A stretch of 64,000 nt of DNA. Source: Vezdaea acicularis (Eukaryota). Under the pieces are notes generated by a model, which was given only the letters and a program-made list of their open reading frames with translations, did not search any database and was not told the DNA's origin. Below are positions 7,904 to 29,000 of the stretch, one piece after another (position 1 is the first letter of the stretch; the number at the start of each line of letters is the position of its first letter). The position numbers were made by a program, and so were the translations under genes. Where the stretch lies: positions 62,001 through 126,000 of the forward strand of contig JAPEUI010000037.1 of the NCBI GenBank assembly GCA_026025075.1, given 5' to 3'.

Positions 7904-8879
7904 CATGACGCGCTGGGCTGGACTTACTACGCGTGCGGTTCTTTCATTGTGGATGCGAGCGGTCTGTATATCATGAACGATAATTTCGCGCACGTGCATG
8001 TGCATACGTGCATACGTTGAACCTTAGTTCGTCTTGTCTTCTAAGTGCTCTGAGTGTTCTGATTGGATTGAATTGGTCGAAGAGACGTCCAGAGATATAT
8101 CTACTAAACCACAACGAACAAATTTCTCCGTAAACGTCGTTCTTGATTGGAGGAGGGTAGTAAGGATACTGTGACAGTCTTCTAACTCTAAGAGGGAGGA
8201 GAGGATAGGATAGGACGGAAGTGAGAGTGGTGGGTATATATATACATCTCCCTCCTTGCTCCCTCTCTTTTTCCCATTTTCCCGCCCCCTATTTCTTCCC
8301 CGTTTCCCCATGAACAGCACCACCCAGCACGAAACCAAAACGAAAAAGAACGAAAAAGAGAACAACCGGGCCACACACGCACCACAAAGAAAACCTCGAA
8401 CGAGAAGTTGAATAGTCATAACCCCCATGACATCACACGCACCGCAAACCGCAGACTCAAGAAAGAACCCAACCGCAACACCCGTCGCGCCGTCCCAAAA
8501 ACAAGAAGAGAGAAAAACGCCGGACGAGCGCGCCAGCAAAAAACAAAAGAAACGGGGAACGCGTGAGAACGCGTGAGATTGTTGGAATAAATTGTGACTA
8601 AACCCCCCCCCTGTCCGTAGCCAGGGCTGCCTGGGTAACGGAAAACGAAAGGGGTGGTGGAGAGGTAAACAAAGAGAGGTGGGCACGTCTAATATCGTAC
8701 ATTACAGCCAGTCAACCAGTCCCGATGAAGTGGGGAATGGGACGAGGGGTGGGAGAACAGGAAAAAAGGGGCATATCATTTGACGCGTGGTAGAAAGGCC
8801 GGGGGGGTTCGAGTCCTGCACAGCCACCACAAGCCACCACAGCCACAACATCCACCAGCACAGCAAACCCTTCCATCCA

Positions 8880-20224: not shown

Positions 20225-20336
20225 GGCTTCGTGGCGCAATTGGTTAGCGCGTCCGGCTGTTACACCCACTAGCTATCTCACATGGAGTAGCGGGATGGTA
20301 ACCGGGAGGTTTCAGGTTCGATTCCTGGCGAAGCCG
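20225..20336 (+). tRNA. tRNA-Asn(GTT) with a ~38-nt intron
   Basis: Acceptor stem GGCTTCG/CGAAGCC; D arm TGGCGCAATTGGTTAGCGC; anticodon arm TCCGG-CTGTTA[intron about 20263-20300]A-CCGGG; T loop GGTTCGATTCC; downstream T tracts. Confidence 0.95.
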
Positions 20337-23479: not shown

Positions 23480-24058
23480 ATGGCACAAACCTCCTCCAAA
23501 CCCACCATCCCAATGAACGGCAAATTCATCCTGCCCTCTCTGGGTCCCCTTGGGTCCCTTACAGCCGGCACGGACATCCCCCCACCTCCCGACTCTCCCA
23601 TAGAAGAGAAACCCAGCGCCCCAACAACAACCGCAACAACGACAGCGCCGGCCTCGCAGAAAGAAAATCAGCACCCGCAGGGCACAGCTCTCTCCCAGCA
23701 GAAACTGAGCGAGCACGGTCCTCCCGGCTCGCCCACGTCCACCCGTCCAGGTAGCGTTCGGCGCTTCCTCTCCCTCAGATCCCTAAACTCATCCTTCACA
23801 GACTCAGCCCCGGCCTCGCCCACAACGGAGACACCGGGTTCGGTTGGCATGTCCACGGTCAAGCAGAAGCGGAGCTGGTTCCGCAAACGAAAACCCAGCA
23901 CGAGCGACCTTGCCACGACGAAGCCGGCAGAGGAGCAGAAGAAAAAGGGGCCCCCGCCGCCGACGCTGCCAGAGCTGGGCATGGGCAAAGGCGATCAAAC
24001 GAGTATCGGGATGGGAGGAGATTTGGGAGGCAAAGAGCTGTTTGAGAATATCAAGTAA
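23480..24058 (+). CDS. Hypothetical Pro/Ser-rich fungal protein
   Basis: 192-aa ORF with a good start context (aaaaATGG). LGSLTAGTDIPPPPDSP, SVRRFLS and C-terminal GPPPPTLPEL..LF motifs resemble a conserved fungal hypothetical family. Confidence 0.7.
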   Translation: MAQTSSKPTIPMNGKFILPSLGPLGSLTAGTDIPPPPDSPIEEKPSAPTTTATTTAPASQKENQHPQGTALSQQKLSEHGPPGSPTSTRPGSVRRFLSLRSLNSSFTDSAPASPTTETPGSVGMSTVKQKRSWFRKRKPSTSDLATTKPAEEQKKKGPPPPTLPELGMGKGDQTSIGMGGDLGGKELFENIK

Positions 24059-24856
24059 AAGCAACCAAGGAAAAGGGGCGGTGCGGGTTTGTGGTGTCTT
24101 GTATCGATACATGTGAAGCGGAGTTGCGAAACAACGGACAGATATGTTTAGAGGACAAGTGGACGACTGGTCAGATGTGACTAGAGGCATGTGTGCAGCA
24201 TCGGAGCAGCGCAAGGACAACTTTTTTTGTATATTCCCCCTCCTGGATCGAGCCGTGTACTTTTTATCTGAGGATCCTCCCTCCTCATGCAGGATAGGAG
24301 AATTGTTGTACCTTATCAGCTAGGATGAGAAGAAAAGTTTTGGCCATGTCGCTCATGTCTTATGTTCGGCTTGCGCTGTACTGCGGTATGAGCGCTTAGC
24401 AAGTAGCCTTGAAGACCTTTTTGAAAGCGATGAGTTTCAGCTCAGGAACGCCATGATAGTGTGCGAGGCCGGGCCATCAGTGCTGGGCTATGCTGGCAAG
24501 GGATATGCCTTTCTTTTCCCTCTTTTCTCTCTTGTCTCTCCTTTCACTCTTTTATTTCCTCCCCCCCTTTCCTCATCCTTCACACCCCTTCTCCTCCCCT
24601 TTTTCTCTCCCCCATTCCCCATTGTCTTCACTACAACCCCTTTGCCCACTCACAACACATGCCGCACCTTGGTCGTCCAGTATAGCTACTGCTCTCACGC
24701 TATAGGTGGGGGGGGGGGGGGGGGGGAGGCTTCATTTATGCGAGCGTGTTGGTTGTAGCGCCTGGAGAGAGAAGAGTAAAGAAAGATAAACAAAGCGCAA
24801 GAAGAAAGGAGAAAGAGCAGAGAAGTTAAGAAAAGATAGAAAAAAACTCAGTCCCC

Positions 24857-25095
24857 AAAAAAGAACCGACTGCTGTGGTGAATTGCTCTGCAGAAAGCGC
24901 ACCGAGAGATATGGGTAATGAACAAAGGAGATTCGGGCCCGCCAGACCCAGCCTAGCCGGAGGCGGGACACCGGGCTTGACCTGAGATGCAGAAAACACA
25001 ATTCATGCGGGATTTGAACCCGCAATCTCGATGATGGGAGGTAGGAAGCGGTCAACTTGGCTACGGTAAATCACTGAGCCACAGCTACGCCGGCT
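24857..25095 (-). ncRNA. Candidate RNA polymerase III non-coding RNA (about 235 nt) of unknown class
   Basis: Minus strand: TATA-like element at 25127-25121, A box TGGCTCAGTGA at 25081-25071, and B box GGTTCAAATCC at 25020-25010. The 5' end AGCCGGC..GCTGTGG pairs with the 3' CCACAGC.GTCGGTT, immediately followed by a T6 run at 24862-24857. Confidence 0.65.
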
Positions 25096-26020
25096 GAGAA
25101 GCTGGGCAGGAATTAGGCAATATATAATGTCAGAAAAATTAAAAATATACGAATTGAAATCTTTCGGCTATGGTGTGATTGGCGGGTTGATATATCTTTT
25201 TAAAATTATGTGGTGGCCATGGGAAGCTTCAGAAACAAGGCGTGAGATTATAATTCGTATCAAGCTTTTGGCGATAGGGGCTAGGCTTTGAGAGGCGACT
25301 CAAGGATTCAACATCTTGTGGTTGTCACACCTCCATCCAACCTTCCTCAACCCAGAAAATATAGAACGTATGCAGTAATTAGCGTGACGAACATCAAATC
25401 ATGCATGCACTCCATCCCCTACGATTGGAGGTATCACCGCATAGGTCACGGCATAGGGATGAGGAAATTGACGCTCAAGTGGTTGCTCTACTATAAGAGT
25501 TCTAAGTTAGAGAGGGGGGCAAAGGTTGTACGTATGGCGTGTGGGATAAATACACTCCGAGCCCTAGCCAATACTAGACTAGGCCGGGATAAAACAGTGT
25601 GTAAGCCACATTTCCGCCTATTACACGTCAGCGGTGTGATCTCCTTCCATCTATCCTTGCTTGTTTGCTAATTAGCCAACTAAGCAGATGATTCTGTCGG
25701 AGCTAAGGAAACCTCTAACCAAATCCATCATGGTACAATGCGTACTTTGTTCAGTCTAGAAGAACATACGGAGATTATGCCGCAAAGTATGAGATCCGTC
25801 CATTAAGCGGCTAAACCCAAGCCATGTGACTTTCTCGTCCAATCCCAAGGGATATTTACAGAGAAGAAAAAGGGGGATGATGCTGACGACCACTTTTGAC
25901 GACGCTAGACAGTCGCTTTGAAAGCCTCAGAAGTGAGCGGGACAGCGCGTGATACGTTATGAGAGCGAAGTTACGTTTCATGCTGCTTTGTATTATGTCC
26001 ATCATACATGCATGAAGGAC

Positions 26021-29000
26021 TTATCCGTTGAAGCGGAAGCGTGTAGCTTCTAGACGGCCCAGACCCTCGCGGGGAGCAACGTTTCGGCGACGATAGGAGT
26101 TTGTGAAGTCTTCACAAAAGTTAGCGAGAGAGATTTCCCTTATACTGCCAAAGGGGATGGCTCACCTTGGAGAAGATACCGCACTTTTTGTGGAGTGTCC
26201 GCCTGGATGACTCTATATCATGCATCAGTCATACCTCCTGCATTTCTTATTTGATGACTTACTCGTTGGTCCTATTTAGTAAACGCTGCGCCTCGACCTG
26301 CTGCAGGGTGCCAGCTGGCAGCTTTTGCAGCGTCCTAGCAATCCACTGCGTAATCTCATTCGGCATCAACTGGACCAGTCCAAGCAGTACACCGCTTGCA
26401 TCGGGAAAACAGTCTCGTGTAAAGTGAAACATCATTCCTGTCAGTATGGCCTGGGTGAGTGTCTCGCCTTCGACTAGGATGAGCTTCTTAACGGCTGCCT
26501 TAACTTCGGGTGGGTTCTTCTCGCCACTTGAGTTAGGTGGATTGTCGCCACCGTATTGGAGAAAGTCGCGTAGGAAGTGGAGTGTTGCGGTCAGGGGCTC
26601 AGTCTGCTGAAGCGTTAGAGATGCCATGGCAGCGCGGAGAATAGGCTCGATGAGTTCGGAGAGGATGAGCCGGTTGGGATAGTAGAGTAAAGCGTCGGTG
26701 ACCAGGCGGAAGAAATCCTCAATAACTGTACGATAATGAGCTATGAACAAAGGGTTATTTACAGGTTGGGAAGGGTTTGCTTACCATCGGGGAGATCTAC
26801 GGGTGGCAAGTCGTTAAGCGCTCGCAAGAATGAAAGCGCTTGATGCTCAAAGAACGCATATATCTGGTCTGAAGTCTCTTTATCGACGTACTCGGCTCCT
26901 TCAGCGAACTCGCGAACGATTGCGTCGGTTGTCCACAAGAAGCATCCTTGCCTTGACTTAGCGAAACCTGTGGTCAACATCTTTGCAAGAATCGGGAGGA
27001 GAGGAGCAGCTGCGGTTCTATAAGAGAAAATCATTCTACGCCAACAACGACAGACCCTTTCACAGATTGGAGAGCAAGTGAGGAAGTTGTCGACAAGAGC
27101 CCCAAGGATTGGGAAGACTTCGGCACAGTATTGAACCCCTGGGTTTTCTGTACCAGGTGGTGTAGTCGGTGCGATGTAGTCAAAGAATATAGATACAAGC
27201 TGCAATTGATCTTGAGGCTGTCAGAATATAGTTGCGAAATACCAATAGATGTATACTCACCAGCAACTTTAAGTTTCCCCTCATCGTCTTGGGCAAGGTT
27301 TGCACTTCGTTTCAGGCGCTCAACAACAGGATCGCAGAAAAGCTTGAAGTATTTGAAGATATTATCGATAGACTGCGCGGCAACGAGTGACGCTACGCCC
27401 TCTGTGACCTCTTCTTGACTTGAAGTCACAAGCTTGTCAAGTATCGAATCGTAGAATTGCTGTATTTGTTCCATGTAGCCGCCCAGGAGATGTCTACAGT
27501 CTTGGCAAAAGAACTTCAGGGCTAGTGCTGCTGCCCGAATAACTTCTGGCGAGTTTGAGTTGAAAGCGGAGATGATGAACTGTAACTGTGAATCAAGGAA
27601 CGTAGGATGAGCTGCGACCCATTCCGTGTAACGAGCAACTGCCATGATCGATTGAAAACGGACTTTTTCATGATACGGAATCTGGACGATCAGTGGCATG
27701 ATTTGAGGCAATATAGTATTTTCTTCTTTAGCATCCACCTTGCTGCCCATAGAACGCATGCTGAATAACGGTGCTTCCAACTCTTGCCAATTTGGTAACT
27801 TATTCTCGGCCGCTTGTGATCCATAGGACGTGACCCATCTTTGAATCAAAACAAATGCCTTAGAGAGACATTCAGTTGGTCCAATAACTTCACAACAGTC
27901 TTTCAGCACGTCTCCCATTGAATGACGGTATTCTCTAAATTTATCTTCTTGCTCACGATCTCCATCGAAGAGGTCCGTTTCATCTCCAGATTCGGGTGCT
28001 GGGAACTCAAGGTGCTTAATCATAATATCGACCAACTTTGAATAAATATCGACCATGAGGACTCGAATCTCGATGTTTCGTTCTATTGTGAGTAGAAGCT
28101 TTAGCTCATACCAGAACTTGAAAGTTAAGGATACAGCTTCCTTGTCCTTGTCTCGAGCAGCACACTCCAGGATCGCCTCTACTAGGCCTCGAAACTCTGC
28201 TGGAGCGCGTATTATTAGAACTACCCAGGCTTCACCAGCTTCAGCGAAGATTCGTGTATATCCTTTGAAAACTTCAAGGTCCTCGTCTGCAGAGGCTTCA
28301 ACGATCTTCGGCCTCAGAGCAAGTACTCGTGGATAAAGCAATGCAACGGAGTCCATGTATTCGTCGACTTCCCGGGTTTCGACAAAGATAGCACAAAGAC
28401 ATTCCACAGCAGAGTCAAAAGCCGGCTCCGATGCAAGTGCATGGAAAATTACATCTAGTAGTGGAGACTTTACTACATCAGCAGCACCAACCTCTCTTAG
28501 CCACGAGGTGATACATTCCAAGAGGAGAGGATTTGTAGCCGCGGACGCTTTATATTTTAGGTCAGTAGGCGCCGTCAAGGAAAGCTGGGTCCTAAAAATC
28601 TTACCTGATGACTGGGAGTAACCAATCAAGAGCTTTAGGACTTGCTGGGCATTCTCGTCCAGGAGCTCTTCCGTCCTAACCTTCAATTCTTCTTCCTAGT
28701 GTGACATATTAGAGTCTGGCTCGCTGATCGGTACGGCTTTTATGAGTGCTCAAAGGCTAGTGCTCTCTCCGGTCCACATACAGTCAGGTTGATCTTTCGA
28801 CCTTCGGTGACCTCCTCAGGTAATATTCTAAGGAATTCCAATATGCAAGTCCCACTTTCTGAGTCGCTCCCCAGCGTAGAAACTACGAGCTGAATAACAT
28901 TCTTCCATTCAAGCATCTGTATTGCAAGATCTGCAAGGCATACACAAAGCTGTGTCCTTATAGGCCGAGGTCCGGATTTGAAATGAGCCAAAAGTGCTAG

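Follow-up and report, generated by a model that had tools for sequence, protein, structure and literature searches.

A candidate tRNA-derived Pol III unit with paired ends in a Vezdaea acicularis contig

We analyzed a candidate RNA element on the minus strand of a 64-kb window of Vezdaea acicularis DNA (contig JAPEUI010000037.1, positions 62,001 to 126,000; all coordinates below are those of the window). The element runs from about 25095 down to 24857 and lies where two genes converge, in the ~2 kb that separate their 3' ends. On balance, we favor reading it as a stand-alone, lineage-restricted, tRNA-derived type-2 RNA polymerase III (Pol III) unit that would produce a ~235-nt RNA of rod-and-branch shape. 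The strong points were its promoter combination and a stem that joins one end of the putative RNA to the other, and this combination of motifs is not a product of chance. Read directly, the minus strand carried every motif that an earlier note on the same letters (the original prediction) had listed, each in its place.

Promoter elements, terminal stem and predicted fold

The A box (TGGCTCAGTGA, 25081-25071) fit TRGCNNAGTGG at 10 of 11 positions and the B box (GGTTCAAATCC, 25020-25010) fit its consensus pattern at 11 of 11. The B box lies within a T-arm-like hairpin with a perfect 6-bp stem (UGCGGG-UUCAAAU-CCCGCA, RNA positions 72-90, 25024-25006; pair probability 0.97). The starts of the two boxes are 61 nt apart, and an irregular 46-nt stretch separates the A box from the T hairpin. 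Another ~140 nt (143 nt counted) lie 3' of the T arm. A T6 run (24862-24857) is the likely Pol III terminator and a T7 run (24846-24840) could serve as its back-up, the two being separated by GGGGACTGAG. The sequence anatomy of a type-2 Pol III gene was present in full, with an A box, a B box, a workable spacing and an oligo-T terminator. Upstream, a TATA-like element (TTATATA, 25127-25121) lay at about -32 to -26 relative to the proposed start. The likely start zone, 25094-25104, was placed by promoter geometry alone. The start favored in the original prediction, 25095, is an A on the RNA strand, a purine 14 nt ahead of the A box. In two of the four metagenome runs described below the RNA strand has C at this position, so the start is not fixed to one base.

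The first 17 nt of the putative RNA (AGCCGGCGTAGCTGTGG) overlap the A box and form the 5' strand of the terminal stem (AGCCGGC-GUA-GCUGUGG, 25079-25095; pair probability 0.99-1.00). Their 3' partner, CCACAGCAGTCGGTT, occupies 24878-24864 and is followed by a C and then by T6, which begins 2 nt beyond the last base pair.

Shuffled and sampled controls showed where the signal lies. The B-box pattern alone was at chance level, with 4 matches in the window versus 2.36 per dinucleotide shuffle. A B box within a 5-bp hairpin occurred twice, in a true tRNA gene and in the element, versus 0.067 per shuffle, while the remaining two B-box matches, at 8806 and 10310, had no hairpin. When an A box lying 25-75 nt upstream was required as well, one instance remained in the window and none arose in 300 shuffles. 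The terminal duplex had a predicted energy of -22.3 kcal/mol, which was reached by 19 of 31,884 20-mer pairs of the same spacing sampled across the window on both strands (mean -6.96, standard deviation 3.49). The ends of this stem were set independently, one by promoter geometry and the other by the T run. The 233-nt RNA had a minimum free energy (MFE) of -83.3 kcal/mol, a value matched by 2 of 200 shuffles (z -3.09). Among 50 windows scanned with 40 shuffles apiece (25 positions, each on both strands), the minus strand of the element had the lowest score, at z -3.57, and its plus strand scored -1.49.

The robust frame of the predicted fold, with pair probabilities of 0.94-1.00, consisted of the helices 2-7/226-231 and 11-17/218-224, arm A, the T hairpin and two helices at the base of arm C. 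The first two of these are the terminal stem of the original prediction, which had missed the arm-C helices, UGAAUUGU/GCAAUUCA at RNA positions 91-98/210-217 and UCUGCA/UGCAGA at 103-108/204-209. The 5' strands of both arm-C helices lie at 24988-25005 (pair probability 0.95-0.96). Arm A is an irregular branched hairpin (RNA positions 18-69, 25027-25078) with helices at 0.94-0.99. The last 28 nt form a continuous 3' strand (24865-24892) that pairs gap-free with two separate 5' segments, RNA positions 2-17 and 91-108. The result is an interrupted 27-bp rod of four helices, the longest unbroken one measuring 8 bp, and the two promoter-bearing hairpins, arm A and the T arm, project from it.

Inside this frame the original prediction fared less well. 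It had nested ACCG/CGGT, TTGACC/GGTCAA and GAGAT/ATCTC within the terminal stem. The terminal stem stood, but the three inner helices, complementary on paper, gave way to the two arm-C helices in the favored fold. As drawn, the full nested model reached -53.5 kcal/mol, ~30 kcal/mol worse than the optimum, and when completed under constraint it reached -68.0 versus the -83.3 minimum, so it is not the favored fold. Its GC-rich internal hairpin (CCCGCC..CCGGC-UAG-GCUGG..GGCGGG, 24938-24967) was recovered in the centroid fold and in the MFE folds of natural variants but was ambiguous in the reference fold. Next to it, RNA positions 169-188 (24908-24927) were predicted to be unpaired.

Both ends of the element look tRNA-derived. 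The 5' end resembles tRNA positions 1-18, an acceptor strand GCCGGCG leading into TAGCT..CAGTGA, and a 6-nt tandem duplication (GTAGCT GTGGCT) appears to break the match after positions 1-9. At the 3' end, GTCGGT resembles the 3' strand of an acceptor stem; it forms six of seven pairs (two of them G-U), and two bases separate it from the T run. Of the tRNA arms only the T arm remains whole, the D and anticodon arms having been lost, and ~140 nt stand where a tRNA has nothing. Because the boxes, the T arm and the end stem were kept while the rest was lost, selection for transcription and end protection would fit this pattern better than uniform decay.

In the mechanism that we propose, TFIIIC would bind the A and B boxes and TFIIIB would be placed over the TATA-like element near -30. 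Pol III would start near 25095 and stop in T6, releasing a ~235-240-nt RNA with a U end. The last 28 nt would then pair with the two 5' segments so that the rod seals both ends. Arm A and the T arm, bearing the promoter boxes, would project from the 5' strand of the rod, and a less defined GC-rich domain (109-203) would occupy its far end. We infer transcription, the exact ends and stability through sealed ends and a La-binding U tail from established Pol III biology. If it is transcribed and conserved, the element would be one more orphan Pol III gene, and a clean case of a tRNA gene remodelled to another structured RNA with its internal promoter kept. As a private relic or as a copy of a short interspersed nuclear element (SINE), it would be ordinary.

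Relatives in moss metagenomes

Four DNA runs from one moss-metagenome study (X1-X4) held 0.18-0.32 of the words of the element. The matching sequencing runs listed were DNA only and carry no information on expression. We compared their contigs over 24300-25700, of which ~24561-24731 was uncovered in all four runs, with zero depth at 24582-24722. The contigs fit 24849-25700 closely; in X1, these 852 nt contained 8 differing letters and 3 gaps. Likeness to the window stopped at 24849, 8 nt beyond T6; the back-up T7 run lies past this point, outside the reach of the comparison.

Differences within the element were few and fell outside the helices that frame it. X1 contained six substitutions and one inserted base, and a seventh site, 25095, varied in X3 and X4 (T>G on the plus strand). 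All four runs shared a G>A change at 25030 (plus strand) and one base inserted in a C run behind 24972. Five further substitutions, at 24927, 24918, 24917, 24913 and 24908, were clustered in the 20 nt of the predicted unpaired stretch in X1 and X4, the sole two runs covering it. Outside the RNA, X1 and X2 had lost 2 bases, one TA unit, at 25127 in the TATA-like run, after which a TATA-like run remains. The A box (the same in all covering contigs), the B box, the T hairpin, both strands of the four framing helices and T6 were unchanged.

All seven substitution sites were unpaired in the MFE fold, which leaves 87 of its 233 positions without a partner, and the five clustered sites had probabilities of being unpaired of 0.76-0.97. 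Three variant haplotypes folded at -86.8 to -89.2 kcal/mol versus -83.3 for the reference, and the change at 25030, C66>U in the RNA, closes a bulge in arm A. The 59 nt at 24849-24907, containing the 3' strand and T6, showed no difference in the two covering runs. To the left of the element, the same two runs differed from the window at 9 of 67 nt (24768-24834) and at 21 of 238-252 nt (24309/24323-24560). We take the relatives as weak support for a constrained frame and not as evidence of covariation.

Divergence along the compared segment was uneven in X4, with 2 other letters in 661 nt (24996-25656) versus 21 in 252 nt (24309-24560). The unevenness over 24300-25700 could reflect constraint or a recombination boundary.

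Two wider searches found no more distant relatives in the collections covered. Synteny followed through the last large exon of the neighboring MTR10-like gene led to three loci in metagenome contigs (37-38% identity), none of which carried the element by blastn, and none of which had a tRNA or a hairpin-borne B box. The pattern of an A box, 38-54 nt and a B box had no match in prokaryote and viral contigs, collections that are ill-suited to a fungus.

Known families, analogues and rival explanations

No known family claimed the element in the Rfam and tRNA-finder checks. At gathering scores, the sole match to Rfam 15 in the whole window was the true tRNA gene at 20225-20336. When matches at E<=10 were allowed on 24700-25300 (601 nt), three appeared, all on the T hairpin, and two of these were plastid untranslated-region families on the opposite strand. 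Models for signal recognition particle (SRP) RNA, RNase P, MRP, U6, Y, vault, 5S and small nucleolar RNA (snoRNA) had no match at this threshold on the 601 nt. The claim that the element is not a tRNA held up. The tRNA model RF00005 matched the T arm alone (positions 43-63), scoring 15.8 bits versus a gathering score of 29, and the acceptor-like 3' strand lies ~140 nt beyond the T arm. ARAGORN called no tRNA on the element at default settings and, with introns allowed, recovered the true tRNA and nothing besides in the whole window. Run with introns on the element itself, it found 0 genes at thresholds of 100, 95 and 90%; the cloverleaf that it drew at 85 and 80% was forced, having mismatches in the acceptor stem and an intron of 31 nt. 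A 112-codon frame across the element yielded 54 word candidates, none at E<=0.001, and 0 matches among 1.84 billion representatives; judged from these searches, the element is not protein-coding.

Two further candidates were rejected. A tRNA gene split by an insertion was set aside, as D and anticodon arms cannot be drawn even when the body is left out. A C/D or H/ACA snoRNA behind a leader did not fit either: inspection by eye showed neither RUGAUGA/CUGA boxes nor an ACA placed 3 nt before the end, and Rfam gave no match. In excerpts of PMC5356446, an extra-TFIIIC (ETC) site is an isolated TFIIIC-bound B box without the other parts of a Pol III gene. By sequence the element is no such site, given that an A box, a TATA-like element and a terminator are all present beside the B box.

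The best reading of the comparisons, made by description, is that the closest analogues of the element are yeast ZOD1/RNA170 and the low-copy AfuSINE2 of Aspergillus fumigatus. Like ZOD1, iYGR033C and RNA170 of Saccharomyces cerevisiae, which excerpts of PMC5356446 describe as single-copy orphan loci with A and B boxes that are occupied or transcribed by Pol III, it would be an orphan Pol III unit. No sequence relation to these loci is expected. The same excerpts derive ZOD1 and iYGR033C from ancient tRNA genes, and describe RNA170 as weakly expressed unless induced, induced on nucleosome depletion, and of unknown function. The yeast loci have chromatin immunoprecipitation (ChIP) and RNA evidence, whereas the element is a prediction from sequence. 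A sealed 27-bp rod, and a body of 140 nt beyond the T arm, would set it apart. We would guess that its product is an orphan Pol III RNA of low abundance, like those of ZOD1 and RNA170, and not a core housekeeping RNA.

AfuSINE2 likewise comes from a filamentous ascomycete. In excerpts of PMC5063351 its head is tRNA-related and carries degenerate A and B boxes, and this head is followed by an unrelated extension and then by an oligo-T tract. Its copies are 140-493 bp long and low or single in number, and five of eight are transcribed (PMC5063351, excerpts). It differs in its 4-14-bp target-site duplications (PMC5063351, excerpts), of which the element showed none of significance, nor any repeat tail. 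The RPR1 and SNR52 genes, in excerpts of PMC2566860, also place the A and B boxes within a 5' segment that is tRNA-like and precedes a non-tRNA body, and in these genes as in ZOD1 regular A/B elements precede the mature RNA. There the leader is removed, and the body of the element had no RNase P or C/D snoRNA match. Because the 5' end of the element pairs with its 3' end, the 5' segment would be expected to stay in the RNA. Vault RNA has internal A and B boxes, and in vault and Y RNAs the two ends pair in a terminal stem and the 3' end is oligo-U. The element would share the boxes (vault), the terminal stem and the oligo-U end with these animal RNAs, but it matched neither model at E<=10 and, at ~235 nt, is roughly twice their size.

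In the partial texts covered by our literature search, no Pol III or TFIIIC occupancy map turned up for filamentous ascomycetes, and no panhandle-shaped tRNA-derived Pol III RNA for filamentous fungi. The only non-housekeeping Pol III products found there were low-copy SINE-like elements and the Neurospora microRNA-like RNAs (milRNAs). The original prediction had proposed a Pol III noncoding RNA of unrecognised class. The type-2 anatomy was borne out, but orphan tRNA-derived units have already been described in yeast and A. fumigatus.

Several observations weigh against our preferred reading of a stand-alone Pol III unit. The RNA is a prediction from sequence. The fold scores near z -3 are modest and supportive only, and a second segment ~500 nt away, 25563-25795 on the plus strand, also fell below -3 (z -3.41 with 40 shuffles, -2.54 with 200). 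The interior of the RNA, positions 109-203, was ambiguous in the reference fold (pair probability 0.2-0.36). The relatives that show conservation are near-identical and come from a single study. In them, the ~600 nt upstream of the element (25096-25700) were even better kept than the element, with one 2-base deletion (X1, X2) and one substitution (X2, X4), so that low divergence in the 5' half is not creditable to the RNA. The five clustered changes may stem from one mutational event, which would reduce the seven unpaired sites to perhaps three independent events. The copy count of one covers the 64-kb window rather than the genome and has little power.

Among the alternatives, a single copy of a low-copy tRNA-derived SINE, the retroposed product of a Pol III transcript as in AfuSINE2, is unlikely but deserves the most weight. 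A tRNA-like head, an unrelated body and an oligo-T run are the very layout that defines AfuSINE2 in the excerpts of PMC5063351, and CTTCTC, which adjoins the 5' end of the element (25101-25096), reappears at 24825-24820, 32 nt beyond T6. The words shared by the flanks were at chance level, the longest, 7 nt, being reached in 285 of 500 shuffles and the next measuring 6 nt, but CTTCTC may still be a short duplication. No A-rich or simple-repeat tail precedes the T run, the RNA strand ending in ...CACCACAGCAGTCGGTTC and then T6. No second copy or fragment was found in the window by blastn (word 7, E<=10), which returned the self-match and 16 short matches, all at E>=2.2. Contigs of all four runs crossed the 5' boundary unbroken, as expected for unique sequence. 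The terminal helix also seals the 5' and 3' ends of the element, which is typical of stable Pol III RNAs and is not known to be typical of SINE RNAs. The SINE alternative, which the original prediction had itself raised, was therefore weakened by the single copy in 64 kb, the lack of a significant target-site duplication and the missing A-rich tail. Rather unlikely, in turn, is a new family of stable ~235-nt Pol III RNAs in a lineage of filamentous ascomycetes, of which the element would be the first member described. Such a family would have arisen from an exapted tRNA gene and would act as a decoy or scaffold for tRNA-handling proteins, a fungal counterpart of vault and Y RNAs. The sealed rod and the T arm would then engage La, T-loop modifiers and exportins.

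Distinctly unlikely is a decaying tRNA relic with no stable product, at most a site where TFIIIC or poised Pol III acts on local chromatin in the manner of ETC sites and ZOD1. The head that reads as tRNA positions 1-18, the intact T arm and the location in the 2-kb gap between the 3' ends of convergent genes are what a relic would show. Uniform decay, however, would not spare an 11/11 B box in a perfect 6-bp hairpin, a 10/11 A box, T6 and a 14-bp end stem while erasing the D and anticodon arms, and it offers no account of the 140 nt lying between the T arm and the 3' strand. A Pol III-driven precursor of small RNAs similar to the milRNAs of Neurospora crassa has very little to recommend it. 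The element does have hairpins and a tRNA-like part, and in excerpts of PMC3547838 N. crassa Pol III makes the most abundant milRNAs and RNase Z cuts milR-4 from a tRNA-containing transcript. The longest uninterrupted helix of the element, at 8 bp, is too short and irregular for a typical Dicer substrate, and there is no acceptor/T-arm stack for RNase Z since the element is not a tRNA. The same excerpts describe milR-1 as having neither an A nor a B box (PMC3547838). Least likely of all is a very divergent SRP RNA, or an RNase P or MRP RNA behind a tRNA-like leader, that Rfam had missed. Yeast SCR1, RPR1 and SNR52 do use A and B boxes, the latter two within a leader (PMC2566860, excerpts). Against this, none of the SRP, RNase P and MRP models matched the 601 nt, and the 143 nt 3' of the T arm are too little for an RNase P or MRP RNA. 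The 5' end of the element (GCCGG..GTGGCTCA) presumably bears a faint likeness to the 7SL/Alu 5' end.

Genomic neighborhood

The true tRNA gene at 20225-20336 (plus strand) scored 54 bits with Rfam and contained a 38-39-nt intron. ARAGORN missed it at default settings and, with introns allowed, called it Thr(ggt), an assignment that looks doubtful. Its layout is comparable to that of the element, with an AT-rich segment at about -45 to -30 and a terminator of the form T5-GGG-T6, the element having T6-GGGGACTGAG-T7.

On the plus strand, the neighboring gene is a 192-codon low-complexity open reading frame rich in Pro, Ser and Thr (23480-24058), which had no Pfam family at E<=0.01. Past the terminators of the element lies a low-complexity block (24520-24850) made up of a CT-rich tract, C19 (24708-24726, minus strand) and an AG-rich tract. 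Toward the other side, a search of 25090-26300 for RNA genes with Rfam returned one chance-level match (E 3.7). The plus-strand segment 25563-25795 had no Rfam match and contained a 14-bp stem in which 25631-25644 pairs with 25770-25783.

The gene upstream of the element is MTR10-like (transportin-3/importin-13 family) and lies on the same minus strand, in agreement with the original prediction. By eye, it seems to continue beyond the stop at 26259 (26050-26262, minus strand), by way of two short introns, GTAAGT..TATAG and GTGAGC..CTAAC..GAAG, until another stop near 26051.

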